Positions 11,668-32,000 of a stretch of DNA of 32,000 nucleotides are shown here, piece after piece. Under the pieces are notes generated by a model. The model made no database searches. It was given only the letters and a program-made list of their open reading frames with translations, and was not told the origin of the DNA. This DNA is from Thermodesulfobacteriota bacterium (GTDB taxonomy: Bacteria; Desulfobacterota; BSN033; UBA1163), in assembly GCA_026415035.1 (NCBI GenBank), contig JAOAHX010000022.1, forward strand, positions 23,026 to 55,025, written 5' to 3'. Both the position numbers and the translations under genes were made by a program. The first letter of the stretch is position 1; the number at the start of each line of letters is the position of its first letter.

Positions 11668-11703
11668 GGAGAGCCTCCTGATTTCAGCCTGCCCTTCTCT
11701 TCC

Positions 11704-11733: not shown

Positions 11734-11746
11734 AAGGCCCCTCGCA

Positions 11747-13515: not shown

Positions 13516-13599
13516 GATTCGACCCCGACTTGCCCCCTCTCGACCCGAGATCGGAACGAAATCCTTTCCCAAGGCCAGAGGGGGCCGGAAGGGATTGGA

Positions 13600-14622: not shown

Positions 14623-14667
14623 CTTTGACCTCCTCTTCAAAGTTTCCCTTTCCCTAAGGGTGAAAAT

Positions 14668-14696
14668 TTTTTAACAAATCCTTTCCGTTTTGACAA
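14668..14696 (-). promoter_or_regulatory. possible promoter of dctPQM: TTGTCA-N17-TAAAAA with a TGT extension
   Basis: The minus strand reads TTGTCAAAACGGAAAGGATTTGTTAAAAAAT in the 91-nt gap upstream of dctP. Confidence 0.4.
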
Positions 14697-14713
14697 GGAA
14701 GGGTTGGACGCTC

Positions 14714-15133: not shown

Positions 15134-15137
15134 GAGG

Positions 15138-16526: not shown

Positions 16527-16733
16527 GGCTCTTCCTTTCCGGTTCCCTCGGGTCTTTCGCTCCTTTGAATCCCCTTTCGAGGAAGGCCCTCCGAGGTCCT
16601 CTCCGTCCGACCCTGGAGGGTAAGGGGTTCTGGGTAAACTTGAATATACACTGTTTTTGAAATGGAGGGAAGCCCCTCCTTTGTTGTAGAATGTAGGCAG
16701 GAAGCGTATTCGGATCCCTATCGAAGGTGAAGG

Positions 16734-18098
16734 ATGGATCGGCCTGCCTTCCTTGCGTTGCTCCTTCTGCTCATCCTCTCCTCGATCCACGGGACGACCG
16801 AGGCCCTGGGCGGAGGCCATCCCTGTTGTCCTGAAGATCGGGAGCTTTCTTATCTCCTCCATCCCAAACCCACCCAGAGCTATTCCTACCTGGTCCGGTA
16901 CGAAACCTTTTTCTCCACGGTGTTGGGGAAGGAGAAGGGGTTTTTCGTCATCCTTCCCATCGATTTTTACCAAAATCCCAAAATGCGGTATCCCCACCTT
17001 TATCTTCTTCACGGGTACAATTTCCATCGGAGGGGATGGCGTTGGAAAGCCAAATCTCCCGAAGAGGTGCGGAAGCATCTCTGCGAAGCCAAGGAGGAGG
17101 AATACCATTGGCTTCTCCATGAAGACATCGCGGTGATTGCCTATGCGATGATGGATTCAAAAAATCGGACCTATCGGGAGTTGCAACGTTCCCTGGAGGA
17201 TCGGTTTTATGAGCTTTCAATCCACGGGGGTCTCCTGAAGGAGGACTACCATCCGAGGGAGATTGCCCAATCCCTTGTCCTCCATAATCTCCACCCAGGG
17301 GGAAATTTGGATGACCCCTTCCAGCCTATCCTTAAGATGGTCCTCGTTCTGCCGGACGGAGACAACGGATTCTATACCGATGAAAACGAAGGAAGGAGGC
17401 TCTTTCCCGAAACAGAAAATCGAGGGCCCTGCGATGGGTTCCACCCGAGGGAGTCTTGGAACTATTCGCTCTTCCCTTTCCTTTGGATGCAACCGGGCGC
17501 CTTAGGGCAATACGAGACCTATTTCCTCGAACTGGTCAGACATTTGGAGACCCGATCCCCTTACAGAGAGAGGCTTCTGCCCGTCAGAGGGATCGGAGGG
17601 ATGTCGATGGGCGGGTTCGGGGCCATGAAATTGGGGCTGAAGTATCCCGACCTCTTCCATTCCATCAGCAGTCAGAGCGGGCTGCTGGACCTCGAGCTCC
17701 TCAGGAATCGATGGACCCTGAAGATGGTCCTCCCGGAATTTTTGGAGGTCTTCGGACGCCTCGACCCGAAGAGCCTCCCTCCGGGTTCTCGTCTCGACCT
17801 TTTTTACATCGCTTCCAACAATCCCCTCCGCCTGCTGGCAAAAAGGGGGATCAAGCGATTGCCCCCCTGGATCTATTTCGACTATGGAGAACAAGAGGGA
17901 TATCCTTGGATCGTCGAAGGGAACCGGAATTTCGAGAAGGCCTTGGCCGCGGCGAGCCGCCGGATCTCGGCCCAGGCTTTCAACGGAACTTCCCAGCATA
18001 ATTACCAGTTCTGGCGAAGCCGGGCAGGAAATATGCTGCGGCACCACTCGGAGGTTTTCCGGGGGCTCCTTTTAGGTCATTCCGTGTCTTCGCCCTGA
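16734..18098 (+). CDS. secreted alpha/beta-hydrolase, putative esterase family
   Basis: Signal peptide MDRPAFLALLLLLILSSIHG. YLLHGY and GIGGMSMGGFGAMKLGLKYPDLF (a GxSxG nucleophile elbow) match esterase-D/PF00756-like proteins. Confidence 0.7.
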   Translation: MDRPAFLALLLLLILSSIHGTTEALGGGHPCCPEDRELSYLLHPKPTQSYSYLVRYETFFSTVLGKEKGFFVILPIDFYQNPKMRYPHLYLLHGYNFHRRGWRWKAKSPEEVRKHLCEAKEEEYHWLLHEDIAVIAYAMMDSKNRTYRELQRSLEDRFYELSIHGGLLKEDYHPREIAQSLVLHNLHPGGNLDDPFQPILKMVLVLPDGDNGFYTDENEGRRLFPETENRGPCDGFHPRESWNYSLFPFLWMQPGALGQYETYFLELVRHLETRSPYRERLLPVRGIGGMSMGGFGAMKLGLKYPDLFHSISSQSGLLDLELLRNRWTLKMVLPEFLEVFGRLDPKSLPPGSRLDLFYIASNNPLRLLAKRGIKRLPPWIYFDYGEQEGYPWIVEGNRNFEKALAAASRRISAQAFNGTSQHNYQFWRSRAGNMLRHHSEVFRGLLLGHSVSSP

Positions 18099-18101
18099 GG
18101 A

Positions 18102-19910
18102 CTACTGCTCGAGGAGCAGGCGACCGAGCCTCTCCCGCTCGATCCCCATCCATTCCCACGCCTCGACGTATACCGCTTTCCCTTTCTCGTCGTAAGGGTC
18201 GACAAGGATCTTCCTCAGAAAGAAAGGAGAATTCCTGACATGACATTCTTTGCAGCCTTTGGCCCCGAGAGCGAGGGACCCGGGCCGGACGTTGTGGTTG
18301 AGGGAGAGGTCCGTCGGTCGGGCCCTATCGTGGGGAATCTTCTCCACCGCCCCTTTTTTATCCAATCGATAGAGAAATCCTCCCTTGAGGAGGACGGGCA
18401 GCTCGGCGATGGGATTTCCGAAGCGGTCTCTTCCTTTGAGGGCGAGGAGGAAGGATCGAATCTCCTCGAGGCTGTTCACCTCTGGAACGCCGTCCCCGTT
18501 GTCATCTCGGAGGGGCGGTTTCTTCATCTCCCGGATCTTCCAGAGCGGGATGGGTCTGACGACATTCCTCTTTTCGTCCAGATCTCCCCAGTAGATCGGA
18601 AGGGCGGGCTTCACCGGTACGATCTTTCCCTTGAAATTCCTGAGACCAGGGTACCAGAGAGGGGACCTCGCTCCGGCGGAGGGGATGAAGTCCGAGGTCT
18701 CATAGATCCGTGTCTCTCCGGTGGTGTGATCATAGACGAGCTCCGCGGAAAGGGACCGGTAAGGAAGGTGGCAGGTCTGGCAGGCGATCCTCCGCAGGTG
18801 GCGGGGCGAGAAGGGGTGGCGGGGGCGGGGCGCTTTGCGATCCCTTCTTTTGTAGTGGCAGTCCTCGCAGGAAGGCATCGTCTGGTCCAGGTCGTCTCGG
18901 ACCGTCAACGAGAGGGAATCTCCCTTGGCGATCTGGTGTTCCTTGTTCCCCGGATGGCAGGAGACGCACTCCATCCCTCTGGCCCGGTGGACATCCGTCT
19001 CGGGGCTCCACTCGTATCCCCTCTTCTTTTCTCCATAGGGGGCATGGCAGGACCAGCAATTCTCGGAAGGAGGCCTTCGGACGATCTGAACATGGAGGTT
19101 TTCGAAATCGGCCACCTCCTTGTTGGTGTAATCGATCCGCGGGGAGCCGGTCTGGGCCTCAGGGGTTTGTGGAGAAGGAGGTTTGAAGGTGGCCCAGCCC
19201 GCTCCTGCCGCAGGTCCGTAGCGAAACAGCCCCGCCCTCAGAAAGGCCGCGCGTTCTTTCCATCGATATCCCGGGAGGTGGCAGATGAGACAGTCCGCTT
19301 CGTTCACCCCGCTTCGGTCCCAAGGGGCGCCGTAATTCTCATGGCCTCCGCTGAAAGGGGTATAATCCCCGTCGAGGTGAGGAGGCTCGCCAAAAAATTC
19401 ATAGCCAAACTTCCGTTTCGAGGGATCGTAGTAAGGGTTTCCCCTTCGATCGAACTCGGCCCATCCTCCTCCTGGATGGCAGGGGCCGCAATTCCGGACG
19501 TAGAAGAAGGTGGATCGATCCATTTCGGAAAAGGTCCGATTCGTTTTTCGGGAGAGGAGGCTCGCATCGGGTGAGAGGGGAGAGTATTTTCCATAGAGCC
19601 CGGAGGAGAGACTCCCGGGCGTTTGGGGATCGAAGGTGTCGCTCACCGCGATCTTCCCCGACCCATCCAGGCGGCCCTGTTGGAAGTGGTACCCCTTTGT
19701 GATCTGGTCGTAGTCGTGGCAGGCACCGCAGGTCTTTTTGGGGCTGTAGGGAGACTGGCTCCCCATCGTGAGGGGAGTTCCCTCGTGGTCCCTCAATACG
19801 ATCTTCGGATGAGGGGAAGTCCCGGAGGAGATCGAAGAAGGAGTCGGGGAGAAGAGACCAAGGCCGGCCAGCGCGATCAAAAAGAACGACCCAAAGAGGA
19901 ATCGTTTCAG
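18102..19910 (-). CDS. octaheme c-type cytochrome (8x CxxCH), exported
   Basis: The heme motifs are CGACH, CGPCH, CLICH, CWSCH, CVSCH, CEDCH, CQTCH and CKECH. The 5' end is extended to the CTG at 19910 (see finding); the first canonical start is TTG at 19880. Confidence 0.85.
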   Translation of the reverse strand: MKRFLFGSFFLIALAGLGLFSPTPSSISSGTSPHPKIVLRDHEGTPLTMGSQSPYSPKKTCGACHDYDQITKGYHFQQGRLDGSGKIAVSDTFDPQTPGSLSSGLYGKYSPLSPDASLLSRKTNRTFSEMDRSTFFYVRNCGPCHPGGGWAEFDRRGNPYYDPSKRKFGYEFFGEPPHLDGDYTPFSGGHENYGAPWDRSGVNEADCLICHLPGYRWKERAAFLRAGLFRYGPAAGAGWATFKPPSPQTPEAQTGSPRIDYTNKEVADFENLHVQIVRRPPSENCWSCHAPYGEKKRGYEWSPETDVHRARGMECVSCHPGNKEHQIAKGDSLSLTVRDDLDQTMPSCEDCHYKRRDRKAPRPRHPFSPRHLRRIACQTCHLPYRSLSAELVYDHTTGETRIYETSDFIPSAGARSPLWYPGLRNFKGKIVPVKPALPIYWGDLDEKRNVVRPIPLWKIREMKKPPLRDDNGDGVPEVNSLEEIRSFLLALKGRDRFGNPIAELPVLLKGGFLYRLDKKGAVEKIPHDRARPTDLSLNHNVRPGSLALGAKGCKECHVRNSPFFLRKILVDPYDEKGKAVYVEAWEWMGIERERLGRLLLEQ

Positions 19911-20608: not shown

Positions 20609-21178
20609 ATGAAGCGGATCTATCTGGACCGGAGGGTCTGGCAGGAGTCGAAAGAGAGCTGGGTGAGCTTCGAGAGCGATCCGAACCTTCGAATGACGAA
20701 GTGGAGTATTTATGGGCGCTGTGTCCCCTGCATCACCCATCTCTACGAGCAGTTACAGGCCGGCCGGGACGAAATCGAGTTGAAGGAGGCCTTCCACTGC
20801 TGGAAGGTGGTGGCGGTTCTGAACGATCAAGAGGAGTGCCTGGAGGTCCTCAAGGAGTACGAGGAACGGTTCCTCGGGGATCGCCCGGTCCGAGGGAAGT
20901 TCGGCTCGAGCCAACCGGAAAAGCCCACCAAGGTCTTGATGTTCCATACCGAGGACGAGGGGGAGAAAGACCGGCTTCTGAAGGAGCTGAAGGAGTGCGT
21001 GAAGAGGGTGAATCCGGAGGGAAAGGTCTTCTGTCAGAAGGCCTGTGCCAACCTCTACTATGAACTCCTGGGGGATTGGAGAGAGTGGAAAGAGGTGACC
21101 CGTATCAGGAATGCGGCGGTCCGTTCCGCATTGATCGAGCGGATCAAGAAATTGCTTTACTGGGAGAAAGACGGGTAG
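20609..21178 (+). CDS. hypothetical protein (189 aa), no recognisable family
   Basis: ATG follows an AGGGGA SD. The composition is charged and helical, with scattered Cys and His residues. Its 3' end overlaps the convergent ribK-like gene by 22 nt. Confidence 0.55.
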   Translation: MKRIYLDRRVWQESKESWVSFESDPNLRMTKWSIYGRCVPCITHLYEQLQAGRDEIELKEAFHCWKVVAVLNDQEECLEVLKEYEERFLGDRPVRGKFGSSQPEKPTKVLMFHTEDEGEKDRLLKELKECVKRVNPEGKVFCQKACANLYYELLGDWREWKEVTRIRNAAVRSALIERIKKLLYWEKDG

Positions 21179-21540
21179 AGGAGGACCTCGATCTCGATCT
21201 CATCGCCTTCTTTTAAAGAGAGGGAGGTCTGGATCTTTTGGGAGGCGATGAGCTCCACCTTGTTTTCGGGATAATGTTCCACGAGGGGAAGAACGATGGC
21301 CCCCCTCAGGCGCTGATGGATGAGGACCGGGTAACAACGAGCCCTGCAGAAGGAGGGGTCTTCCGGGACGATTTCGATCCCCTCCCTCTTTTTGAGATCT
21401 TGGTAGGCCCGAAGCGAATCGAGGTCGTGGATCTGGAGGTTGAGGGTGCCGGGATAGGGATCGATGGAAAGTTTCTCGATGAACTGTCTTCGCACCCAGG
21501 GGATCTGGGTAAATTGATTCGCCTCTTTCAACCCCCCCAC
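21157..21540 (-). CDS. archaeal-type (CTP-dependent, DUF120) riboflavin kinase-like protein
   Basis: IDPYPGTLNLQI matches the PYxGTLN motif. HYPENKVELIASQKIQTSLSLKEGDEIEIEV resembles the C-terminus of M. jannaschii RibK as I recall it. The start is a GTG at 21540, 6 nt after GAGGA. Confidence 0.65.
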   Translation of the reverse strand: MGGLKEANQFTQIPWVRRQFIEKLSIDPYPGTLNLQIHDLDSLRAYQDLKKREGIEIVPEDPSFCRARCYPVLIHQRLRGAIVLPLVEHYPENKVELIASQKIQTSLSLKEGDEIEIEVLLYPSFSQ

Positions 21541-21556
21541 AATTTTTCCTCGAATC

Positions 21557-22156
21557 TTAATGGTTCAACCCTCTCTTTTTCAGATGATTTTTGACCGTTT
21601 GGCTCCCCCAGCGGGCGAAGAGGTTGTGTTCGATATGGAAGAGGTCGAGGACCTTTCCGACGGTGTGGTTGATGAGGTCATCCATCGTCTTGGGGTGGAA
21701 ATAGAAGGCCGGGGCAGGCGGAAGGATGATCACCCCGAGGTCGGCCAGGTTCATCATCAGGTTGAGATGGCCTTTGTGGAGCGGGGTTTCCCGGACGACG
21801 AGGACCAGCTTTCGTCGTTCCTTGATCGTGACATCGGCGGCCCGGATCAGGAGGTTGAGGTTGAAAGAGTTGGCGATGGCCGAAAGGCTCTTAATCGAAC
21901 AGGGCATGACGACCATCCCGTCGGTCTGGAAGGAACCGCTGGCGATATCGGCCCCCACATCCTTGATGTCGTAGACCACCTTGGCCAGGGCCCGGACCTC
22001 CTCGACCCTCCAATCGGTCTCCATCCGGATGGTCTTCTCGCCCGCCTCCGTGATCACCAGGTGCGTCTCCACCTTGGATCTCGAGAGGACCTCGAGCAAT
22101 CGGATTCCGTAGATGGCCCCGGTGGCTCCCGAGATTCCCACGATCAACCGTTTCAT
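21557..22156 (-). CDS. ubiX: UbiX-type flavin prenyltransferase (prFMN synthase)
   Basis: MKRLIVGISGATGAIYGIRLLEVL is the start, and MVVMPCSIKSLSAIANS, VLVVRETPLH and ILPPAPAFY follow. An ATGA overlap joins it to the upstream UbiD gene stop. Confidence 0.92.
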   Translation of the reverse strand: MKRLIVGISGATGAIYGIRLLEVLSRSKVETHLVITEAGEKTIRMETDWRVEEVRALAKVVYDIKDVGADIASGSFQTDGMVVMPCSIKSLSAIANSFNLNLLIRAADVTIKERRKLVLVVRETPLHKGHLNLMMNLADLGVIILPPAPAFYFHPKTMDDLINHTVGKVLDLFHIEHNLFARWGSQTVKNHLKKRGLNH

Positions 22157-23541
22157 CTCATTCCTTTCGCCTTGAGGTCGTGGAGAAGAGGGGAGAGCCT
22201 TCGTTTTACCTCCTCCGGGACATCGACCTTTTTGAACCCCTCGGGCCTCGGCCGCGTGGCATCCAACCCCATCTTGGCGGTGAAGAACCCCTCTCCCGCT
22301 GAAGGATCGATAGGTTGTCCCCTCATCTCGGTCAATACCATGAGGTCTCGGTCGGCCTGGAAACGGGTGGCCAGGGCCCATTCGATCTCCTGATTGCTGT
22401 GAAGGTCGATGTCCGGATTGACCGCCACTGCCTTTTTGATATGGGGAAAGGAGAGGGCCAAGGCCAGGGCCCTTCGGACCTCCGCCCGGCTATCGGTCTC
22501 TATGCTTATGACCGCATGGGAGCCGAAGGTTCCGGGGACGAAGCGTATCTCCCGGATGGCGGGGACCTCCCTTTTCATCTTTGGCACAAAGTCGAGGCCA
22601 TGGACGAGGTAGAGGAGGTTGTCCACCTCGAGGCTCCAGGGCACGATGGCGTGATAGAAGGCCCCCTTTTTCAGGGTAAGGGCCGTCACCTCGATGGAGG
22701 GGCTCCTGGAGAAGCCCATGTAATAGCCGCTCGATTCTCCGAGGACCCCGTCCTCTTCCTTACCCATGGGATCGATCACGCCTTCGATCACGATCTCGGC
22801 GCGGGCGGGGATTTCGAGATCGACGGTCTCCGCCTTGACCGTCTCGATCGCCCTTCCGATGAGACCTCCCACCAGGGCGAGCTTGTCCATTCCCGGAGGG
22901 GCTTTGAGTATGGGCGCGATGAAGATCAGGGGATCCAGGCCGATGGCCGTGGCGATCTCCATCTTTCTCCGTCTCTTTTTGTACTTCTCGTAGATTTCCG
23001 AAAGGGGAGGGTTGAGCAGGGAGATCCCGAGGCGGTCTTTGCCTCTGAGTTCCATTCGGTGAAGCCCCCGTCCCATCGCGCCGGTTTCGGGATCCCGGGC
23101 GGAAGAGACCCCCGAGGTGATGTAAGGACCGGAGTCGTCCTCATAGTGGGTGAGGATGGGCAACAGCCTCCTCAGGTCGAGGCCCTTTCCCCTTTTGATG
23201 ACCTCCTTGGGGGTCTCCTCGCGGACGAGGACAGGTGGGATTTCTTGTCCGAGGCGCTTAAGAAATTCCTCAAAGAGCGTTTCGGGCTCCGCCCGGAGGG
23301 CCAGGGCCAGGCGTCTTTTCGTTCCGAGAAGGTTACCGACCACGGGCACCCGATGGCCTTTGACCCGCTCAAAAAGGATCGCTGGTGAGTCCCGCTTCCC
23401 CAGCTCCGACAGGACCGCCGAGATTTCATATCGAGGGTCCAGCGGAAGCTTGATGGAAAGGAGGTCGCCTTGGGATCTCAAGGCGTCCAGAAAGTCACCC
23501 AGCCCTGAGATTGGCCTCAAGGAGGCTCCGGAAGAGATCAT
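22153..23541 (-). CDS. UbiD-family decarboxylase/carboxylase paralog 1 (462 aa, most divergent)
   Basis: UbiD-like throughout: PAILFERVKGHRVPVVGNL, DDSGPYITSG, IATAIGLDPL. The active-site loop reads DGVLGESSGYY where other UbiD proteins have E-x-P-F-G-E/D-x-x-G-Y. The start at 23541 forms an ATGA overlap with the 85-aa gene. Confidence 0.85.
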   Translation of the reverse strand: MISSGASLRPISGLGDFLDALRSQGDLLSIKLPLDPRYEISAVLSELGKRDSPAILFERVKGHRVPVVGNLLGTKRRLALALRAEPETLFEEFLKRLGQEIPPVLVREETPKEVIKRGKGLDLRRLLPILTHYEDDSGPYITSGVSSARDPETGAMGRGLHRMELRGKDRLGISLLNPPLSEIYEKYKKRRRKMEIATAIGLDPLIFIAPILKAPPGMDKLALVGGLIGRAIETVKAETVDLEIPARAEIVIEGVIDPMGKEEDGVLGESSGYYMGFSRSPSIEVTALTLKKGAFYHAIVPWSLEVDNLLYLVHGLDFVPKMKREVPAIREIRFVPGTFGSHAVISIETDSRAEVRRALALALSFPHIKKAVAVNPDIDLHSNQEIEWALATRFQADRDLMVLTEMRGQPIDPSAGEGFFTAKMGLDATRPRPEGFKKVDVPEEVKRRLSPLLHDLKAKGMR

Positions 23542-23795
23542 TGAAATTTGTTGACCTCTTTGAGGATCTTGATCGACCAGGGCCTCTCCTGGAGTTGACC
23601 CCTTCCCAGGCGGACCCACAGAAGGTCTGGGTATTTGGTCTCCGATTTGGAGACCATGGCAATGGCGTAGGTACTTCTGTATTTATAGCGGCGATCCTCA
23701 GGGGTGAGGTCTCGGACGATCATCTCCATCTCCTGGTCTTCTGGGAAGGTGTCGGGGTCTGTCAGAATGAAGGTGTCGTACTCTTTTCTGGCCAT
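23538..23795 (-). CDS. 85-aa acidic, Cys-free protein; candidate small subunit of the UbiD-type complex
   Basis: ATG at 23795 lies 5 nt after GAGGAGGGAG and 11 nt after the UbiD-2 stop. Its stop overlaps the UbiD-1 start. Sequence: MARKEYDTFILTDPDTFPEDQEMEMIVRDLTPEDRRYKYRSTYAIAMVSKSETKYPDLLWVRLGRGQLQERPWSIKILKEVNKFQ. Confidence 0.6.
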   Translation of the reverse strand: MARKEYDTFILTDPDTFPEDQEMEMIVRDLTPEDRRYKYRSTYAIAMVSKSETKYPDLLWVRLGRGQLQERPWSIKILKEVNKFQ

Positions 23796-23806
23796 GCTCT
23801 CCCTCC

Positions 23807-25258
23807 TCAATCCTTGAATCCATAGGCTTTCCAGTTGGTCAAAACCTTTTCCTGAATCGCCTTGGGGTAGATATCGGGGTTGCTGAAATTGACCTTGATC
23901 GGAACCATCCCCTTCGGCCAATCGAGGGGGAAGGTGCAGTCGAAGAGGACCTGAGCGCCCCGGCTCCACTTTCGATCGGCGGGGTCGGCGAAGGGATAGA
24001 GCGGCGTTCCGGGGGCCTGTTCATATTTTCGAATGCCCCGGATGGGATGGCATTTGGTGCAGAGATCGTGAATCACCTCGTCCTTGTTGTAGATATCGGT
24101 TTTATCATCGACCACGACGACCATGTGGAACCAAGGGCTCAATTTCGATCCGAAGACGAGATTGGCAATCTGGGTGGCGATCCCGCTGTAGGCGACCTTG
24201 GTTCCGACGACGACAAGATGGTGGGTCGATTCGGGCCACATGAAGACCCCGGTGATGGGAATGCCCTGGCTTTCGAGGAGCTTTCTCATTTCAAGGCCTA
24301 ATGAAAAAGATCGCAGCAATTGCCCCTCGTCGGTGGGGACGCCCATATTGGAGACCGTCAAGATGGGGTTGTTGCGGAAGGTGATGGCCTTGATCCGGTA
24401 AACGGTCCTCGGTTCTCTCGGGGAGGTCCGATAGCCCGTATACTCTCCGAAGGGCGCCTCCTCGATCAAGACGTTGGGAATGACGTCTCCCTCGATGATG
24501 ATCTCGGCATGGGCCGGGACGAGGAGGTCGTTCGTTTCGCACGGGACCAGCTCCACGGGAGCGCCCATCAACATGCCCGTGAACTCGTCTTCGGGGATGG
24601 GGGAAGGGGCGCAGGCGGCCACCCCAGCCAGGGGATCGCAGCCGATGACCGTAGCAAAGGGCATGGGTTTGTTTTTGGGGACGTATTTTCCATAAAACAT
24701 CTTTCCCATGTCGGAAAAGGGAAGGACCGGGCCGACCATGGTCTTTTCGTCGAAGACCGACTGTCGGTACATCCCCCAGTTGACGAATCCGTTGTCAGGA
24801 TCTTTGGAGACGACGAAATGCCATGTGGCCAGATACCTCCCTCCATCTCCTCCGTGAACCATCGGGGCCGGCAACTTGAAGAGGTCAGCATCCTTGTCCA
24901 GCCAGATGTTCTCTTTACAGGGAGCCTTTTTCTTGTCGACGACGACCGGTTTGATCGGCTCTCCGGTCGTTCGCTTCACATACTCATCGGAGATTTCAGG
25001 CACGGAGGCATCTGGTTGCATGCCCATGGCGATGGCGAGCCGTTTGTAGGTGGCCAAAGGGGCCCCGAAGGCTTCGAATCCCGGATAGTCCCGAATCTTT
25101 TTAAAGTAGGGGGCAGGTGATTTCCGTTCGCAGACCCTGCGGACGATCGCGCCCATCTCAAGGTCCCAGTCCACCTCCTGGTGGATGGTGACGAGGTCGT
25201 CATGGGTCTCCAGGGCCTTGATGAATTCCCGATTATCTTTGTAAAACGTATAAGCCAT
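23807..25258 (-). CDS. UbiD-family paralog 2 (483 aa), phenylphosphate-carboxylase alpha/beta-like
   Basis: Start MAYTFYKDNREFIKALE follows an AAGGAGGA SD. GGRYLATWHFVVSKDPDNGFVNWGMYR, ATVIGCDPL and the EAPFGEYTGY active-site loop are present. Confidence 0.85.
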   Translation of the reverse strand: MAYTFYKDNREFIKALETHDDLVTIHQEVDWDLEMGAIVRRVCERKSPAPYFKKIRDYPGFEAFGAPLATYKRLAIAMGMQPDASVPEISDEYVKRTTGEPIKPVVVDKKKAPCKENIWLDKDADLFKLPAPMVHGGDGGRYLATWHFVVSKDPDNGFVNWGMYRQSVFDEKTMVGPVLPFSDMGKMFYGKYVPKNKPMPFATVIGCDPLAGVAACAPSPIPEDEFTGMLMGAPVELVPCETNDLLVPAHAEIIIEGDVIPNVLIEEAPFGEYTGYRTSPREPRTVYRIKAITFRNNPILTVSNMGVPTDEGQLLRSFSLGLEMRKLLESQGIPITGVFMWPESTHHLVVVGTKVAYSGIATQIANLVFGSKLSPWFHMVVVVDDKTDIYNKDEVIHDLCTKCHPIRGIRKYEQAPGTPLYPFADPADRKWSRGAQVLFDCTFPLDWPKGMVPIKVNFSNPDIYPKAIQEKVLTNWKAYGFKD

Positions 25259-25281
25259 CACATCCTCCTTTCGGAATGGTT

Positions 25282-25824
25282 TTAATCCCCTTTCGAGAGT
25301 TTTTCGATCACGTCGGTCCACTTCCCCTGGGCCCTGAGGATGAATTCGGCCACCTCCCTGACCACCCCCCTTCCACCCCCTGCCAGGGTCACATAATCCG
25401 CCACCTCTTTGGCCTCGACCGAGCCGTCTGAGGGGGCGACCGAAAAACCGACCCGCTTCATGACGCCCAGGTCGATCATCTCGTCCCCGACGTAGCAGAT
25501 CTCCTCGTCCTTGAGGCCAGAGTCTTTTTCAAATTCATCGAGCTTTCCGATCTTGGCCGAGGTCCCCCATAATTTCTCCAGCGGGACCCCGTAGATCTTC
25601 CCCACCTGTTCATCCGTCCTCGTGATTTTACTGGTCAGGAAGGCCACGCCGATCCCCCCTTCCTGGAGGGCCAGGCATCCCAGACGGTCGCGAAGGGAGA
25701 AGCATTCCGACTTCTTCCCATCATCCGTATAATATAGGGTGTTATCCGTCAGGATCCCGTGAATGTCGAGGATCACAAACTTTACCTTTTTGGCTTTCTC
25801 AACGGCCTGCTCCCTGTCTTTCAT
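25282..25824 (-). CDS. KdsC-like HAD-superfamily protein 1 (180 aa), phenylphosphate-carboxylase 18-kDa-subunit-like
   Basis: Collinear with KdsC as I recall it: VILDIHGILTD, FSLRDRLG, VAFLTSK, YVGDEMIDLGVMKRVGFSVAPSD, GGGRGVVREVAEFILRAQGKW. Motif I is D-I-H-G, with the His codon CAC at 25761-25759. An ATGA overlap joins it to the ligase stop. Confidence 0.8.
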   Translation of the reverse strand: MKDREQAVEKAKKVKFVILDIHGILTDNTLYYTDDGKKSECFSLRDRLGCLALQEGGIGVAFLTSKITRTDEQVGKIYGVPLEKLWGTSAKIGKLDEFEKDSGLKDEEICYVGDEMIDLGVMKRVGFSVAPSDGSVEAKEVADYVTLAGGGRGVVREVAEFILRAQGKWTDVIEKLSKGD

Positions 25825-27494
25825 CGGAAACCTCCCCTTTCGAAATCTCCTTTCAGTTTTCTCTCGATATCCTCTTTGAGGGCCTTCTTGTCGATCTTTT
25901 CCGCTTTGGTCAAGGGCATCCGATCGACGAACTCGATCCTCTCCGGAAGCTGGAGGACCGAGGCCTTCTTCTCTTTGAGGTGGGCGATGATCTTTTCAAA
26001 GCTTAAATCCGCCCCCGGCCTGGGTTGAATGTATGCGCAGACCCGTTCTCCGAGGTCCGGGTCGGGCATGGGCACGACCGCAACCAGGGCGACATCGGGA
26101 TGGGTGCTGATCAGGGATTCGATCTCCGTGGCGCTGATGCTTTCGCCTCCTCGATTGATCATCTCTTTGACCCGGCCGGTGAGCCTGACCACGCCCCTTT
26201 CATCGATGATGGCCAGATCCCCGGTCCGGAAAAACCCATCTTCGGTGAAAACCTTCGCATTCTCCTCGGGCGCTTTGTAGTAACCGGTGAAGACTCCCGG
26301 CCCTTTGATGACCAATTCTCCCGGCGTGTTGGGAGGGAGCTCTCTGCCGTCCGGGCCCACCACCTTGTAAAGGTCGTAAGGACAGGTGGGTTTCCCCACG
26401 GTATGGAGGATCGTCTCGAGAGGATCCCCGGTTCGGGTCAGGGTGGTCTGGCCCTCTGTGCCTCCATACCCATTGTAGAAGTGACAGCGGAGATCTTCCC
26501 TCACCCCCTTCACCAGCTCAGGAAGGCTCAGGCTCCCGCCACAATGCATTGCCCTCAGGGAACGGAGATCATAGTTTTTCCGGCCTTCGTAGTCGAGTAG
26601 CCTTTTTGCAAGCGTCGGCGTCCAGACGATCGTGGTCACCCTCTCTCTCTGGATCGTCTCGCAGACCTCCTTCATCTCCGTCGTATCGAGAAAGACGTTC
26701 TTGCCAAAGGCAAAAAGGGTGCTTCCGAGCCCTTTGGTGAAGGTGAGGTCATGGCCGATCGGTCCGGCGAGGAGGCAGGTGTCTCTGTGACTCACTTCCC
26801 AGGCATAGGCGGCAAATTCCATGGTGCAAATGAGGCTGTTGTGGGTTCGGGGGACCAGTTTGGGAAGACCCGTCGTCCCACCCGTGGGACCCATGTGGGC
26901 GACCTCCATGGGATCCGGTCTTCTCAAGGCAAGCCGGGTGAGGTTGGCTTCGTTGAGCTCCACCCCTGCCATCAATTTCTCCATGCTTTTATAGAGTCCC
27001 AGACCCTCGCTCCGGACAAGGATGACGTTTCTCAAAAAAGGGGTCTCCTTGACCACATCCTCGACGATGGGAAGGTAATCGGTCTTCTTATATTTTTCCG
27101 GCACGATCCACAAGGTGGCCTCCGAGAGTTTGGCCAGGTACTGGATCTCGTGCTGTCGATAGCGGTCGATGAGCAACACCGGGATGGCACCGACCTTTTG
27201 GGTTGCAAAGTAGGCGAAGACGAACTCCACCCAGTTTGGGAGTTGAATCAGGACGCGGTCTCTCGGGGCGACCCCAAGGTCCAAAAGGCTCACCGCGAGG
27301 CGGTCGGTTTTCTCCCTCGCCTCTTTGAAGGTGAGCCGGTGCTGTCCGTCCACAAAGGCCTCTTTGTCCGGAAAGACATCCGCCGCCTTGTCCAGGAGAT
27401 CCCCCAAGGTCATACCGGACCACCAGCGAAGGCGAATATATTTCTCAGCATCTTCTTGGGGATAAGGGGTGAAGCCTTCGAGATAGCCTGTCAT
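25821..27494 (-). CDS. aryl-acid adenylating enzyme / CoA ligase of the EntE-DhbE (2,3-dihydroxybenzoate-AMP ligase) type
   Basis: The N-terminus GFTPYPQEDAEKYIRLRWWSGMTLGDLL resembles DhbE/EntE. The ANL motifs are TGGTTGLPKLVPRTH, GYGGTEG, FRTGDL and GRVKEMINRGGESI. Confidence 0.85.
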   Translation of the reverse strand: MTGYLEGFTPYPQEDAEKYIRLRWWSGMTLGDLLDKAADVFPDKEAFVDGQHRLTFKEAREKTDRLAVSLLDLGVAPRDRVLIQLPNWVEFVFAYFATQKVGAIPVLLIDRYRQHEIQYLAKLSEATLWIVPEKYKKTDYLPIVEDVVKETPFLRNVILVRSEGLGLYKSMEKLMAGVELNEANLTRLALRRPDPMEVAHMGPTGGTTGLPKLVPRTHNSLICTMEFAAYAWEVSHRDTCLLAGPIGHDLTFTKGLGSTLFAFGKNVFLDTTEMKEVCETIQRERVTTIVWTPTLAKRLLDYEGRKNYDLRSLRAMHCGGSLSLPELVKGVREDLRCHFYNGYGGTEGQTTLTRTGDPLETILHTVGKPTCPYDLYKVVGPDGRELPPNTPGELVIKGPGVFTGYYKAPEENAKVFTEDGFFRTGDLAIIDERGVVRLTGRVKEMINRGGESISATEIESLISTHPDVALVAVVPMPDPDLGERVCAYIQPRPGADLSFEKIIAHLKEKKASVLQLPERIEFVDRMPLTKAEKIDKKALKEDIERKLKGDFERGGFR

Positions 27495-27524
27495 CTCATC
27501 CTCCTCTCCAAGGCTTGGGGAAGG

Positions 27525-28082
27525 TCATTTGTATCCCATGCGGGTCACCTTTTCGACCCACTCTTCCCATTTTCCCATCGAACGGAGGATGAATTCACAG
27601 GTCTCCCGGATTGGCCCTCGACCTCCGGGTGCGGTGGTGATGTAGTCGGCGACCTCCTTCACTTCATCGATGGCATCGGCTGTGGCCACAGCGAATCCGA
27701 CCCTTTTCAGGAGGGGGAGGTCCGTGATTTCGCAACCGATGTAACCCACCTCTTGGTCGCTGAGGTTCAGCTCACGTTTTAACTCCTCCAGTTTTGCCAC
27801 TTTATCTTTCACCCGGAAGTAGAATTTATCGAGTTTTAATTCCCTGGCGCGGAAGAGCCCCTCCTCATCGATGGAGGTCGTATCCAAAAACGCGATCTGG
27901 ATTCCATTGGCCGTCAGGGAGAGATCGCCAAACCCGTCCATGTGCCAGAAGGCATACTTCCGTCGGCCTTCGATATCGCAGAAGAAGGTGTTCGGGGTGA
28001 GGACGCCGTGGACATCGTGGGCGAACAATTTGATCCTCTTGGCCTTCTCTCTCGCCTTTGCGAGGTCTTTTTCGAATCCCAT
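27525..28082 (-). CDS. KdsC-like HAD-superfamily protein 2 (185 aa), degenerate paralog
   Basis: Motif I is LFAHDVHGVLT (D-V-H-G), with the His codon CAC at 28010-28008. Motif IV reads YIGCEITDL where KdsC has GDDxxD. GGRGPIRETCEFILRSMGKW is also present. Confidence 0.75.
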   Translation of the reverse strand: MGFEKDLAKAREKAKRIKLFAHDVHGVLTPNTFFCDIEGRRKYAFWHMDGFGDLSLTANGIQIAFLDTTSIDEEGLFRARELKLDKFYFRVKDKVAKLEELKRELNLSDQEVGYIGCEITDLPLLKRVGFAVATADAIDEVKEVADYITTAPGGRGPIRETCEFILRSMGKWEEWVEKVTRMGYK

Positions 28083-28119
28083 GCCTTTCTCCTTTCCCTC
28101 AAGCCTTTCGGGGACCGGC

Positions 28120-28611
28120 TCAGCCCAGCTTTTTCCCCAGTTGGTAGTAGCGATTTTCGAACCAGATCAAGGGTTTCAACTTGGGTCGGATCTTGTGGGC
28201 GACGACCTTCCCGACGTAGAGGATATAGTCGCCCTCCTTCACCGAATTCACCAGTTTACATTCGAGATTGGCGAAACAATCGGTGATCATGCTTCCTTTG
28301 ATCGTAGAGGCAGGCTCGGTGTTGATCTTAAATGTCTTCAATTTGTCGATGGATTCTCCGTGGATCGCCCCTAACTTCTCGGCCAGGTCGACCTGATGGG
28401 TGGAGGCGAGGTTCACGACGAATTCCTTGGCCTTGGGGATGAGGCGATGGGTGGTGCTCTCCTTGGAGATGCTGATGGCGATCAGGGGAGGGGAATCCGA
28501 GACAAACATCCCCGAAGCCGTCATGAGATTATGTTTCCCCCCTGCTTCGACGCTCACAAAGGTGACGATGCAGGGAAGTTCTCCAAAAATTACATCTCTA
28601 TAATGCCACAT
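28120..28611 (-). CDS. flavin reductase-like FMN-binding split-barrel protein (163 aa)
   Basis: The SD is AAAGGAGGAAG. NLMTASGMFVSDSPPLIAISI, EFVVNL, ANLECKLV and GDYILYVGKVV follow the PF01613-type pattern. Confidence 0.7.
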   Translation of the reverse strand: MWHYRDVIFGELPCIVTFVSVEAGGKHNLMTASGMFVSDSPPLIAISISKESTTHRLIPKAKEFVVNLASTHQVDLAEKLGAIHGESIDKLKTFKINTEPASTIKGSMITDCFANLECKLVNSVKEGDYILYVGKVVAHKIRPKLKPLIWFENRYYQLGKKLG

Positions 28612-28647
28612 CTTGCCCTTCCTCCTTTCTCTGCGTTCAGAACCGAT

Positions 28648-30066
28648 TCAATCCTCAAACCCGTACTCCTTCCATCGGGACTTCACCTTGGCCAGCATCG
28701 CTTCCGAAAGCTTGATTTCCGTCGGCTTGACCGTCCACTCAAAGGGGATGGTGGCGTCGAGGATGATCCGGGAGGTGATAAATTTATTGTCCTCCGGCCC
28801 GAGGGAAGGATCGAGGGGGGTCGATCGTCCGCGGTGGATGATCTGGGTGCCCCGCTGAGGGTTATAACGCGTCCCGAGGGCCCACCATACCCGGGGGAGG
28901 TCGTCGGCCTCGATGTCGTGATCGACGATGATCACCATTTTCACCCCGTACATTCCTGTGTTGCTCGCGATCACCGCAGCTGCCACCTGATCGGCATGAC
29001 CTGGATACATCTGCTCCACGGAGACGACCACGATAAATCGGCCGGAGGCCTCGGGCAGGGTGTAGACCGATTTGATTCCAGGGATCTCCATCTTGGCCAG
29101 TTCGGTCCAGAGGCTGGCGTTCCTCGTGAAGGCATAGAGGATATGCTGGTCTCCGACGGGCCTGCCCACGCTCGTTTCCCAGAGGATGGGGTTGTTTCGA
29201 TGATAGATCCGTTTTACGTCGAGAGCGGGCTTCGGGATGGGTTTGATCAATTCCTCCGTGTAATAACCGGTATATTCTCCGAAGGGGCCTTCGTTTCGGA
29301 GGTTTTTCGGATCGATCTCCCCTTCGAGAACGATCTCCGCGGCCGCAGGGATGGGGAGCCCCGTCAGGGGGGCCTTGACGATCTCGACGGGTTCCCCTCG
29401 TAAAGAGCTCACCACGTCGTAACCACTCTTCGCCTTCACCGTGGTGGCCGCACCGGCCAGGACGTGGAGGGGGTCTCCCCCGATGATGGCACAAGCGGGC
29501 ATCTTTTTGCCCGCCTTGGCATACTTTTTCAAGATGCGGTCCCCTTTTTTCCCCTTCAGGATCTGGACGCCCACCGTCTTATCATCGAGGATCCCCATCC
29601 GGTAGGTTCCGAGATTGATATCGCCGGACTCGGGGTCCTGCAACACCATGAAGACCGCGGTCCCGAAATACCGACCCCCATCGAGCTCATAGAATCTGGG
29701 GGAGGGGAAAGCAAAGGTATCCACCTTGTCTCCCTCGAGGACGTTTTCGAAGATGGGCCCATCTTTCTGCTCCTTGGCCTTAATCACTTCCTTGACGGCC
29801 ACATTGACCCATTCCTTGGTGAGCTGGACCATGGAAAGGGAGGGGTCCTTTCCCAGGATGATGGCGAGCCTTTTGGTCGTTCCGAAAGCGCCGGTCAGAA
29901 CGGGGCTGGTATATCCCTTGACGTTTTCAAAAAGCAGGGCCGGTCCGCTTTTCTCTTCCACGAGCTTGGCGATATGGGAGATCTCGAGGTCCCAATCCAC
30001 CTCGGCCTTGATCCGTTTTAATTCCCCGACCGCTTCACATTTAGCGATAAATTCCCTGAGGTCCAT
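28648..30066 (-). CDS. UbiD-family paralog 3 (472 aa), phenylphosphate-carboxylase alpha/beta-like; first gene of the operon
   Basis: ATG at 30066 lies 6 nt after GGAAGGAGG; the ORF-track GTG at 30072 abuts the SD. GPALLFENVKGY, DGGRYFGT, NLGTYRM, AIIGGDPL and the EGPFGEYTGYY active-site loop are present. Confidence 0.88.
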   Translation of the reverse strand: MDLREFIAKCEAVGELKRIKAEVDWDLEISHIAKLVEEKSGPALLFENVKGYTSPVLTGAFGTTKRLAIILGKDPSLSMVQLTKEWVNVAVKEVIKAKEQKDGPIFENVLEGDKVDTFAFPSPRFYELDGGRYFGTAVFMVLQDPESGDINLGTYRMGILDDKTVGVQILKGKKGDRILKKYAKAGKKMPACAIIGGDPLHVLAGAATTVKAKSGYDVVSSLRGEPVEIVKAPLTGLPIPAAAEIVLEGEIDPKNLRNEGPFGEYTGYYTEELIKPIPKPALDVKRIYHRNNPILWETSVGRPVGDQHILYAFTRNASLWTELAKMEIPGIKSVYTLPEASGRFIVVVSVEQMYPGHADQVAAAVIASNTGMYGVKMVIIVDHDIEADDLPRVWWALGTRYNPQRGTQIIHRGRSTPLDPSLGPEDNKFITSRIILDATIPFEWTVKPTEIKLSEAMLAKVKSRWKEYGFED

Positions 30067-30113
30067 CTTCACCCTCCTTCCCCAATCGTGGGTTAAAAGT
30101 CGATTTGGCCTTC

Positions 30114-30143
30114 ATTATCTTTTGAACAGGAGGGGCTTGTCAA
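30114..30143 (-). promoter_or_regulatory. candidate promoter of the UbiD operon: TTGACA-N18-GATAAT
   Basis: On the minus strand, TTGACA is at 30143-30138 and GATAAT at 30119-30114. That leaves about 40 nt of leader before the ATG at 30066. Confidence 0.5.
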
Positions 30144-30166
30144 TTCATTTATTTTTATGTTTTAAT
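30137..30166 (+). promoter_or_regulatory. candidate lysR promoter TTGTCA-N18-TTTAAT, back to back with the operon promoter
   Basis: The -35 at 30137-30142 overlaps the opposite-strand -35. The -10 ends 11 nt before the ATG at 30178 and no SD is visible, so the mRNA may have a very short leader or none. Confidence 0.4.
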
Positions 30167-30179
30167 AACTTCTGGTTAT
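30165..30179. promoter_or_regulatory. LysR-type T-N11-A dyad ATAAC-N5-GTTAT
   Basis: A perfect 5-bp inverted repeat at 30165-30179 overlaps the lysR start codon. It lies roughly 65 nt upstream of the TSS inferred for the divergent operon. Confidence 0.45.
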
Positions 30180-31119
30180 GGGCAAGCAGATCCCCCTTTA
30201 TGATTCGATCCAATCCCTTTTCGTTTTCCACGAGGTGGCGAAGCAGAAGAGTTTTTCGAAGGCCGCCGAGGAACTCTACGTCACCCAGCCCGCGGTGACC
30301 AAACACATCAAAGGGCTCGAGCAGAAGATCGGGATGCGCTTGATCGAAAGGGGAAAGGCCGGTTTCGGCCTGACGGAAGCGGGAAAGATCCTTTTCAAAT
30401 CGACCCAGAGGATCGCAGGACACCTTCAGGAGGTCGAGCATCTTCTTGGAAAACTCCGGAAGGAGCACCATGGTTTTCTGAGAATTGGAACGACGGAATC
30501 CTATTCCCGATGCCTGATGCCCGAACTTCTCTCGGAATTTCAGACGCGCTTTCCTTCGATCAAGATCGCCCTCGATGTCGGGAGCTCGGAGGAGATAGAG
30601 AAGAGCCTGCTGGCCTACCAGAACGATGTGGCCTTGATCGCCGTGACCAAAATTTCCCCCAAGTTCGAATGCGTTCCGTTTCTTAAGGAAGAACTCGTCC
30701 TGATCGTCTCCCCCCAGCATCCCCTGGCCAGCCACCGGAGCGTCTCCCTCAGGGCCGTGGAGGGATACCCTTTTATCATCCGGGCCAGAGGATCGACGAC
30801 GAGAAAAATCGTGACGGAGGCCTTCAAAGAGCTGGGAGTTCACCCCTCCCTTTTCATCGAAGCCGGCAGCTCAGAATTCATCAAACAGTGGGTCTCCGAA
30901 GGAAGAGGGATTTCGGTCATCGTCGATCGGATCGCTGAGGAGGAGGCGAAAAGGGGACAGGTGGTCCGGATCCCCCTGGAAGAAAGATTCCAGTTACAGG
31001 TCTCTTTGCTCTATCTGAAGGCGGAGAGAGGCAACCCGGCCATCCAACATTTCAGCCGCTTCATCGAGGAGAAGAGGGAGGGGGGAGGCAAGGTACGGAA
31101 TTTACAAATTAAAACTTGA
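30178..31119 (+). CDS. LysR-family transcriptional regulator
   Basis: The N-terminal wHTH reads FHEVAKQKSFSKAAEELYVTQPAVTKHIKGLEQKIGMRLIER. A LysR substrate-binding-type C-terminus follows. It is divergent from the UbiD operon. Confidence 0.9.
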   Translation: MGKQIPLYDSIQSLFVFHEVAKQKSFSKAAEELYVTQPAVTKHIKGLEQKIGMRLIERGKAGFGLTEAGKILFKSTQRIAGHLQEVEHLLGKLRKEHHGFLRIGTTESYSRCLMPELLSEFQTRFPSIKIALDVGSSEEIEKSLLAYQNDVALIAVTKISPKFECVPFLKEELVLIVSPQHPLASHRSVSLRAVEGYPFIIRARGSTTRKIVTEAFKELGVHPSLFIEAGSSEFIKQWVSEGRGISVIVDRIAEEEAKRGQVVRIPLEERFQLQVSLLYLKAERGNPAIQHFSRFIEEKREGGGKVRNLQIKT

Positions 31120-31253: not shown

Positions 31254-31338
31254 GGAGAGGTTCCCGAGCGGCCAAAGGGGACAGACTGTAAATCTGTTGG
31301 CAATGCCTTCGGAGGTTCGAATCCTCCCCTCTCCACCA
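31254..31338 (+). tRNA. tRNA-Tyr (anticodon GTA), class II long variable arm, CCA encoded
   Basis: GGAGAGG...CCTCTCC acceptor stem. The anticodon loop is CTGTAAA. The T-arm is GGAGGTTCGAATCCTCC and the 3' end is ACCA. Confidence 0.92.
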
Positions 31339-31339
31339 G

Positions 31340-31361
31340 TTCGATATTAATTCGATATTAA
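31340..31361 (+). repeat. perfect tandem duplication of an 11-mer (TTCGATATTAA x2) just 3' of tRNA-Tyr
   Basis: Unit 1 is 31340-31350 and unit 2 is 31351-31361, starting 1 nt after the CCA end. Confidence 0.9.
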
Positions 31362-31484
31362 AAGGTCTGAAGCTGGGCGGAAAAGGTTTTTGAGCGGTTT
31401 GCCCGCTGAAGTGTGGTTTCGTCGATATCCGTGGATCCGAGAAGTGACCGTTGTCCAACAAAACGACCCCGATTGAGAGGAAAA

Positions 31485-31560
31485 GCGGGAGTAGCTCAGT
31501 TGGTAGAGCATCAGCCTTCCAAGCTGAGGGTCGCGGGTTCGATCCCCGTTTCCCGCTCCA
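31485..31560 (+). tRNA. tRNA-Gly (anticodon TCC), CCA encoded
   Basis: GCGGGAG...TTCCCGC acceptor stem with one G-U pair. D-arm TAGCTCAGTTGGTAGAGCA. Anticodon loop CTTCCAA. T-arm GCGGGTTCGATCCCCGT. Confidence 0.92.
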
Positions 31561-31606
31561 AAGAATACAACCTTACTTGGTGATAGAGGTTCCATTCAAG
31601 AGGAAG

Positions 31607-31634
31607 CCTGTCTCGATTCGCTGACAGGTTTTTT
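31607..31634 (+). terminator. intrinsic-terminator-like hairpin between tRNA-Gly and tRNA-Thr
   Basis: CCTGTC (31607-31612), a 10-nt loop, then GACAGG (31623-31628), followed by TTTTTT at 31629-31634. Confidence 0.45.
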
Positions 31635-31656
31635 ATTTATTTTTCTCATCACCCAT

Positions 31657-31732
<76 letters not shown>

Positions 31733-31787
31733 ACGAGGCGAGGCCTTTCGATCATCTTCTTTGGAGGAACTCAAGGAGGGAGGAGCC

Positions 31788-32000
31788 ATGTCGAAGCCGA
31801 AGTTTGAGAGGACGAAGCCGCATGTGAATGTGGGGACGATTGGGCATGTGGATCATGGGAAGACGACGTTGACGTCGGCGATTACGAAGGTGTTGTCGGC
31901 TCGGGGGTTGGCGCAGTATATGGCGTTTGATCAGATTGACAAGGCGCCGGAGGAGAAGGAGCGGGGTTTGACGATTGCGATTGCGCATGTGGAGTATGAG
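31788..32000 (+). CDS. tuf: elongation factor Tu, 5' part (runs off the window)
   Basis: ATG at 31788 follows an AAGGAGGGAGGAG SD. Sequence: [37 protein letters not shown]...[13 protein letters not shown], containing the G1 motif GHVDHGKT. It is absent from the ORF track because there is no stop in the window. Confidence 0.95.

Follow-up and report, generated by a model that had tools for sequence, protein, structure and literature searches.

We analysed a 32,000-nucleotide stretch of a Thermodesulfobacteriota genome (contig JAOAHX010000022.1 of assembly GCA_026415035.1, positions 23,026 to 55,025; hereafter the window), which carries an operon of UbiD-type carboxylase genes and an aryl-acid ligase gene beside a LysR gene. 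The open reading frame (ORF) list and scans with Pfam and NCBIfam models placed ten intact minus-strand ORFs at 21157-30072, beside the divergent LysR gene. The features of the locus were as follows, with the names used in a preliminary description of the window given as earlier names.

30178..31119, plus strand: divergent LysR-type regulator (ORF)
30114..30143, minus strand: candidate sigma-70-like promoter in the LysR-ppcB spacer (TTGACA, 18-nt spacer, GATAAT; 11/12 matches)
28648..30072, minus strand: PpcB, beta subunit (earlier UbiD-3; TIGR02724)
28120..28611, minus strand: flavin reductase-like protein (PF01613)
27525..28082, minus strand: delta-2, KdsC-type HAD protein (earlier HAD-2; best family TIGR02726)
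25821..27494, minus strand: AMP-forming aryl-acid ligase (PF00501 and PF13193)
25282..25824, minus strand: delta-1, KdsC-type HAD protein (earlier HAD-1; best family TIGR02726)
23807..25258, minus strand: PpcA, alpha subunit (earlier UbiD-2; TIGR02723)
23538..23795, minus strand: gamma subunit, 85 amino acids (PF09662, Phenyl_P_gamma)
22153..23541, minus strand: PpcX-type third UbiD protein (earlier UbiD-1; TIGR00148)
21557..22156, minus strand: UbiX flavin prenyltransferase (PpcY; NF004685)
21157..21540, minus strand: DUF120 or CTP-dependent riboflavin-kinase-domain (RibK-like) protein (PF01982)
20609..21178, plus strand: Cys-rich protein of 189 amino acids, convergent with the 3' end of the operon (conserved; no family match)

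The gene order and families of the preliminary description were reproduced in full. Three pairs of genes overlapped at ATGA stop/start sites (25821-25824, 23538-23541 and 22153-22156), and the remaining intergenic gaps were 11-37 nt, within the 37 nt given before. The active-site loops that had been quoted for the three UbiD proteins, EGPFGEYTGYY, EAPFGEYTGY and DGVLGESSGYY, were also present. All ten genes had a purine-rich stretch upstream of the start codon, in most cases a clear GGAGG or GAGG Shine-Dalgarno sequence. The promoter candidate was a consensus match only, and such sites occurred in the region at about the frequency expected from shuffled sequence. The LysR gene was kept in the same position, with 62-81% identity, in the related loci L001, L002, L003, L030, L041-46, and L075.

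Two of the three UbiD proteins matched models of phenylphosphate carboxylase (Ppc) subunits. PpcA scored 709.6 bits on the equivalog model TIGR02723 (cut-off 564.6) and was 62.9% identical to the annotated ppcA product of Azoarcus sp. KH32C, 82% to that of L036, 81% to those of L038-40, and 74% to that of L034; the L036 and L038-40 genes are linked to phenylphosphate synthase (pps) genes. PpcB scored 690.2 bits on TIGR02724 (cut-off 468.95), with 62-63% identity to Azoarcus PpcB and 81-83% to the proteins of pps-linked L036 and L038. Both proteins kept the N-x-G-x-Y-R and E-x4-E motifs of enzymes that use prenylated FMN (prFMN). The preliminary description had left open whether the UbiD proteins nest within characterised families; UbiD-2 and UbiD-3 do, in the PpcA and PpcB families, and UbiD-1 fell in the generic UbiD family.

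The 85-residue protein has the size of the gamma subunit of about 10 kDa and passed PF09662 (49.7 bits, cut-off 25), and it scored 53.2 bits on TIGR02725, below the cut-off of 135.55. Likewise, delta-1 and delta-2, candidates for the KdsC-type subunit of about 18 kDa, scored 132.8 and 124 bits on TIGR02726 (phenyl_P_delta), both below the cut-off of 282. The Azoarcus gamma and delta proteins passed their TIGR cut-offs, unlike the proteins of the window and of L036. Since the proteins of pps-linked L036 scored equally low (54.7 bits for gamma, 119.5 and 107 bits for the deltas), the low scores are a matter of lineage distance and do not argue against a place in the Ppc system.

A search of plasmids by tblastn found a canonical cluster for comparison, of the type known from denitrifying Betaproteobacteria (Thauera aromatica and Aromatoleum), on plasmid pAZKH of Azoarcus sp. 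KH32C (NC_020548.1; L033), with the order sigma-54 regulator, ppsA, ppsB, ppsC, ppcB, ppcD, ppcA, ppcG, UbiD, UbiX, DUF120, NUDIX hydrolase, and AMP-binding protein. The window operon was collinear with this cluster from ppcB through DUF120, and both clusters contained a CoA ligase gene, with alpha and beta subunits of the same equivalog families. The third UbiD, UbiX and RibK-like genes therefore belong to the standard set, and the earlier view that three UbiD genes and a private flavin and prFMN supply fit no described locus could not be upheld. The two clusters differed in other respects. Azoarcus has ppsABC and the sigma-54 regulator directly upstream, whereas the window has LysR and no pps; Azoarcus has one delta protein with the motif D-V-D-G, whereas the window has two delta paralogs with D-x-H; the Azoarcus ligase is of the PaaK type and lies at the cluster end, whereas that of the window is EntE-like and lies between the delta genes; and a NUDIX gene in Azoarcus contrasts with a flavin reductase gene in the window.

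The same subunit set (two delta-type HADs, alpha, beta, gamma, PpcX, and PpcY) was shared with loci of the same lineage, namely those of Syntrophorhabdus aromaticivorans, L036, L038, and L034. The operon of S. aromaticivorans strain UI encodes PpsAB, PpcBCCAD, the UbiX-like PpcY and the UbiD-like PpcX (Ju et al., 2018; PMC5946492). In L036 a LysR gene was followed divergently by PpsA, PpsB, B, HAD, HAD, A, gamma, UbiD, UbiX, and RibK-like genes, and in L038-40 the genes for PpsA, PpsB and a response regulator preceded LysR, with the same eight genes (B to RibK-like) in divergent orientation. The window subunits were 60-83% identical to those of L036 and L038, and a divergent LysR was common to all three. 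However, the operons of S. aromaticivorans, L036, L038, and L034 contain ppsAB or lie beside it, and no ligase or flavin reductase gene interrupts the stretch from ppcB to ppcA. L034, also pps-linked, had two adjacent HAD genes and a PaaK-type ligase. A pair of HAD paralogs, earlier listed among the features that fit no described locus, was thus found in every one of these loci, and two delta-type genes are a standard trait of Desulfobacterota-type clusters, including ones with ppsAB.

The genomes nearest to the window were uncultured Syntrophorhabdus metagenome-assembled genomes. Synteny between L001 and the window was complete and extended to the genes past the 3' end of the operon, with protein identities of 77-97%, and the ligase-containing operon was also present in L002, L003, L030, L041-46, L054, and L075. 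In L046 an operon of this type (PpcB, HAD2, ligase, HAD1, PpcA, gamma; 78-89% identical) had PpsA and PpsB genes directly beyond LysR. The PpsA protein of L046 scored 830 bits on NF006153, similar to PpsA of L036 (828 bits) and Azoarcus (809 bits). To judge by gene neighbourhood, at least one genome does combine the ligase-type operon with a working synthase. Across the lineage the placement of pps evidently varies, from inside the operon to beside LysR to unlinked. It had been proposed that pps genes just outside the window would make the locus an ordinary phenol cluster; this was borne out in part, by ppsA and ppsB beyond LysR in the sibling locus L046 and not by any gene in the window.

From these comparisons we conclude that the operon probably encodes the phenylphosphate carboxylase of anaerobic phenol degradation in Syntrophorhabdus-related Desulfobacterota, leading from phenol to 4-hydroxybenzoyl-CoA with the synthase encoded elsewhere. 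The conclusion follows from the equivalog matches of alpha and beta and the collinearity with Azoarcus, from relatives with 81-83% alpha and beta identity and the same gene order that are linked to ppsAB (L036 and L038), from the pairing of the ligase-type operon with PpsA and PpsB in L046, and from ligase relatives that lie beside 4-hydroxybenzoyl-CoA-reductase-like genes. Canonical clusters (Azoarcus and L034) also carry a CoA ligase, of the PaaK type. Gene content, family memberships, collinearity with the canonical cluster and pps linkage in sibling loci were read directly from the sequences. Of the earlier proposal, the combination of a Ppc-type operon for an aromatic carboxylase with a ligase that activates aryl acids is supported. 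The locus departs only modestly from a known system and does not represent a new type of carboxylase; particular to it are the EntE-like ligase between the deltas, the flavin reductase found only in its closest relatives, and the lack of pps in the window. The value of the analysis is mainly corrective: the locus should be taken for an operon of phenol catabolism that encodes phenylphosphate carboxylase, not for an orphan multi-UbiD system.

The inserted ligase (MCX8118664.1, 100% identity), located between the two delta genes, was similar over its full length to DhbE (1md9, 352 bits) and to salicylate-AMP ligases. The EntE-type label of the preliminary description therefore holds for overall similarity. 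It does not extend to specificity: in the alignment to 1md9 the DhbE specificity residues were not kept (N235 to D249, Y236 to L250, S240 to a gap), and the ligase family was linked to 4-hydroxybenzoyl-CoA-reductase-like genes. No genes for a carrier protein, an isochorismatase or a nonribosomal peptide synthetase were found among the scanned window ORFs. An EntE-type siderophore function was ruled out by the changed specificity residues and the lack of carrier and nonribosomal peptide synthetase genes in the window.

We surveyed the gene neighbourhoods of 78 ligase relatives. Relatives with 51-69% identity directly adjoined a three-gene molybdenum hydroxylase, the best NCBIfam matches of which were the alpha, beta and gamma subunits of 4-hydroxybenzoyl-CoA reductase (TIGR03194, TIGR03195, and TIGR03193), and other relatives, up to 81% identical, adjoined TRAP transporters. 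The neighbours of the window ligase family are thus catabolic, in contrast to the DhbE/EntE family that it resembles in sequence. The ppc-linked ligases formed a shallow clade nested within this family, and the binding motif GH-D-L-x-F-T-K-G was common to the ligases of all genomic contexts. The simplest reading is a CoA ligase of the 4-hydroxybenzoate type that joined the operon recently, where it would replace the PaaK-type ligase of the Azoarcus and L034 clusters. In the Syntrophorhabdus-like lineage, an aryl-CoA ligase drawn from a family linked to TRAP transporters and reductases, and serving the step that follows carboxylation, would then have entered the carboxylase operon.

The survey also brought up a module for aromatic acids, uncharacterised and widely distributed among Desulfobacterota. 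At L010, L016-18, L067, L077, L096, L097, L100, and L114 ligase relatives lay in cassettes with the 4-hydroxybenzoyl-CoA-reductase-like three-subunit molybdenum enzyme, often together with an aldehyde:ferredoxin-oxidoreductase-like gene, a second ligase and a TRAP transporter.

The two delta proteins were about 42% identical to each other, and each was about 40% identical to Azoarcus PpcD. The ortholog of delta-2 was the first HAD gene of L036, L034, and L031 (65-73% identity), and that of delta-1 was the second (69-80%). Motif I read D-I-H-G in delta-1 and D-V-H-G in delta-2, compared with D-V-D-G in Azoarcus PpcD, and motif IV of delta-2 read G-C-E. Deltas with D-x-H also occurred in L031 and in the pps-linked loci L036, L038, and L034. 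Among about 37 top KdsC-like cluster representatives, the only departures from D-x-D were the delta-1 representative (D-I-H-G) and one delta-2-like representative (D-V-P-G); the other 35 kept D-x-D, 32 of them as D-V-D-G and the rest as D-A-D-G, D-C-D-G, or D-I-D-G. The Desulfobacterota-type carboxylase thus uses two deltas with His (Pro in the one delta-2-like representative) instead of the general acid/base Asp of HAD enzymes, and the mechanism of such deltas may differ from that of the Thauera and Azoarcus type. The paralogs were among the best-conserved proteins of the operon, with 83-96% identity across sibling loci, which argues that phosphate-handling subunits are still in use.

Several observations weigh against a phenylphosphate carboxylase for phenol. 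As the preliminary description had said, the 32-kb window contained no pps-type gene (PEP-utilizer or PPDK_N). None lay in the 21 kb on one flank of the operon, and tRNA genes and tuf occupied the other flank. In the syntenic loci L003 and L030 none was found within 5-7 kb beyond LysR; L003 had, beyond tuf, ORFs whose sizes match those of nusG and ribosomal protein genes, and the flank of L030 was different and also without pps. The nucleophile Asp was retained in both deltas, with His in place of the Asp at D+2. The reductase-like neighbours of the ligase relatives fell short of the equivalog cut-offs (610 bits, cut-off 995), which leaves room for a different hydroxy- or aminobenzoate as the acid. 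Finally, the ligase-type loci formed their own clade, and their LysR was only 39% identical to the LysR of L036, which makes paralogy with a shifted substrate possible.

Such a shift would give a paralogous aryl-phosphate or aryl-phosphoamidate carboxylase for another substrate (catechol, hydroquinone, cresol, or aniline), with its own ligase activating the matching substituted benzoate and a synthase elsewhere. We consider this unlikely. In its favour, the ligase-type loci were monophyletic for beta and for PpcX, their LysR is distinct, and the window lineage lacks pps in cis. In place of the DhbE Asn that binds the ortho substituent, the ligase carries Asp. In Desulfatiglans anilini, moreover, Ppc-like subunits from separate clusters serve aniline (PMC7500099). 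In neighbour-joining trees the ligase-type loci were a clade sister to pps-linked L036 and L038, a position that would fit species-level orthology or recent paralogy alike. However, alpha and beta exceed the cut-offs of the Ppc equivalog models and are 81-83% identical to pps-linked ones, L046 pairs this operon type with a PpsA that belongs to the NCBIfam subfamily of Azoarcus PpsA, and the ligase has the same motif as the relatives beside 4-hydroxybenzoyl-CoA-reductase-like genes.

The lack of pps in the window and the syntenic flanks would also suit a phosphorylation-independent route. In a genome without Pps the alpha-beta-gamma core would carboxylate free phenol or another arene reversibly, the ligase would shift the equilibrium by trapping the acid as its CoA ester, and the deltas would be scaffolds only, with ATP saved in a syntroph. 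The insertion of the ligase into the carboxylase operon between the deltas agrees with such a trap, and the loss of the D+2 Asp in both deltas, with the G-C-E of motif IV in delta-2, agrees with scaffolds. However, D-x-H deltas occur in ppsAB operons (L036, L038, and L034), L046 has pps beside the ligase version, and the delta proteins are strongly constrained and keep the nucleophile Asp. The Thauera enzyme studied by Schühle and Fuchs in 2004 is also reported not to carboxylate free phenol at a useful rate. We consider a route of this kind very improbable.

The remaining genes of the operon relate to the flavin cofactor. The third UbiD protein scored 288 bits on TIGR00148 and was otherwise a generic UbiD-family protein, the nearest solved structures being 6h6x and 6h6v, which we take to be the decarboxylase HmfF. 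It was the positional ortholog of the UbiD protein that follows ppcG in Azoarcus (39% identity) and of those in L036, L038, L034, and L031 (50-61%). In this PpcX type G-R-G-L-H-R replaced N-x-G-x-Y-R in every lineage, Azoarcus included, and, among the window protein and the orthologs of L031, L033, L034, and L036, the first Glu of the E-x4-E loop was changed in most members, which suggests that PpcX may not be a conventional prFMN decarboxylase. The similarity to HmfF and the reversibility of UbiD enzymes would allow the locus to be mainly a decarboxylase system that takes CO2 off a hydroxybenzoate. We regard this as hardly credible: the acid would also be drawn on by the CoA ligase of this operon, the set of alpha, beta, gamma and delta subunits is specific to phenylphosphate carboxylase, and sibling loci are linked to pps.

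UbiX passed both NF004685 (263 bits, cut-off 188) and TIGR00421 (248.5 bits, cut-off 108.9), and its position was the same in Azoarcus, L036, L038, and L031. The RibK-like protein scored 105.7 bits on PF01982 and 50.2 bits on NF040694 (ribK_Meth), which is below the equivalog cut-off of 168. Its gene was also found 3' of UbiX in Azoarcus KH32C (annotated as a DUF120 protein), L036, L038, L034, and L031. A literature search for a link between prFMN or UbiX and riboflavin kinase found none. The flavin reductase scored 109.5 bits on PF01613, with PheA2 and flavoredoxins as the nearest solved relatives. It was present only in the window, L001, L030, and L075, and missing from the otherwise identical operons of L002, L003, and L041-46; it is a late accessory that plausibly supplies reduced FMN to UbiX. 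The LpdD-type prFMN chaperone was ruled out as an analogue of the flavin reductase, being unrelated to it and differently folded. Candidate genes for prenyl-phosphate supply accompanied UbiX in L031 (an IDI-2-like FMN_dh and a HAD_2 phosphatase) and in L033 (the NUDIX hydrolase); near UbiX the window had no IDI-2-like FMN_dh, HAD_2 or NUDIX gene, only the flavin reductase, itself confined to a subclade.

For the phenylphosphate carboxylase that we favour, these parts suggest the following course. The divergent LysR regulator would turn on a single transcript, and phenol would be phosphorylated by PpsAB encoded elsewhere in the genome. By orthology with the established Thauera biochemistry, both delta HAD proteins would remove the phosphate from phenylphosphate, and the alpha-beta-gamma core (PpcA, PpcB and the 85-residue protein) would add CO2 in the para position to give 4-hydroxybenzoate. 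The inserted AMP-forming ligase, judged by its operon position and the neighbours of its relatives, would make 4-hydroxybenzoyl-CoA, which would then pass to a reductase and the benzoyl-CoA pathway encoded elsewhere. UbiX, the DUF120 protein, PpcX and the flavin reductase of the subclade would probably supply or mature the prenylated flavin. Such an arrangement implies that this lineage no longer keeps its synthase genes with the carboxylase operon.

The Cys-rich 189-residue protein convergent with the operon had no Pfam, NCBIfam or PDB match. It had 240 homologs, and the best-scoring 120 homolog clusters were all at least 69% identical. Cys38 and Cys41 (a CxxC pair), Cys64, Cys77, Cys146, and His113 were invariant. 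The AlphaFold2 model had a predicted local distance difference test score (pLDDT) of 81.6, and no fold match was found in the PDB. A homolog lay at the 3' end of, or inside, the Desulfobacterota-type ppc cluster in every inspected locus (L001, L030, L042, L075, L121-125, L031, and L034). The gene is a probable accessory gene of ppc clusters, and its product may be an unrecognised accessory factor. The delta subunits and this protein are cheap targets for work on the assembly and maturation of prFMN carboxylases in strict anaerobes.

A bolder reading, to which we give little credence, is that the genomes with the ligase operon truly lack a synthase and that the D-x-H complex carboxylates free phenol with a CoA-ester trap, or that the flavin reductase, PpcX and the 189-residue protein form an oxygen-independent prFMN maturation system of strict anaerobes, or both. 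Free-phenol carboxylation, if true, would spare an energy-starved syntroph the two ATP equivalents of phosphorylation.

Other carboxylase loci were also compared with the operon. The putative anaerobic benzene carboxylase cluster that Abu Laban and colleagues are said to have described in 2010 reportedly comprises abcDA, bzlA, and ubiX. By this description it is like the window in having Ppc-like UbiD proteins, an aryl-CoA ligase and UbiX without pps, and unlike it in that the window has the full set of alpha, beta, gamma and delta subunits, with alpha and beta above the Ppc equivalog cut-offs. The agreement of alpha and beta with those models argues against membership of the Abc type (benzene or naphthalene carboxylase). 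The isophthalate cluster of S. aromaticivorans (ligase, UbiD, and UbiX) was ruled out as a match, having a PaaK-type ligase and no Ppc subunits. The 'PpcA2' locus of Desulfosarcina variabilis (CP159846.1; L031) shared with the window two delta HADs, alpha, gamma, PpcX, UbiX, the RibK-like gene, a homolog of the 189-residue protein and LysR, and it had no pps within 10 kb. It differed in having two alpha-like genes, a distant beta, a divergently transcribed PaaK-type ligase and the extra IDI-2-like and HAD_2 genes, and no EntE-like ligase.

Further genes were observed around the ppc clusters and in the rest of the window. UPF0261 (PF06792) genes recurred beside the ppc clusters of the lineage (L036, L038-40, and L121-125), and in L121-125 an amidase gene was inserted 3' of the RibK-like gene. 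Positions 31254-32000 of the window held tRNA-Tyr(GTA), tRNA-Gly(TCC), and tRNA-Thr(GGT) and then a tuf gene that begins at 31789, and L003 had an ORF of 399 amino acids, the size expected for tuf, at the corresponding place beyond LysR. Positions 9073-19880 contained genes for DUF362, DUF6599 and 4Fe-4S proteins, a TRAP transporter (DctP and fused DctQM), an ADP-forming acyl-CoA-synthetase-like protein, an esterase and a multihaem cytochrome c. Of these, the esterase and cytochrome genes were syntenic in L001 and L030, and the region had no evident link to the operon. At 3702-7493 a DEAD-box helicase with an MrfA zinc-binding domain was followed by an RNase_H-superfamily/TPR protein, which together resemble an MrfAB-type DNA-repair pair. 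Positions 1121-2199 encoded a pair of an extracytoplasmic function (ECF) sigma factor and a zf-HC2 anti-sigma factor.

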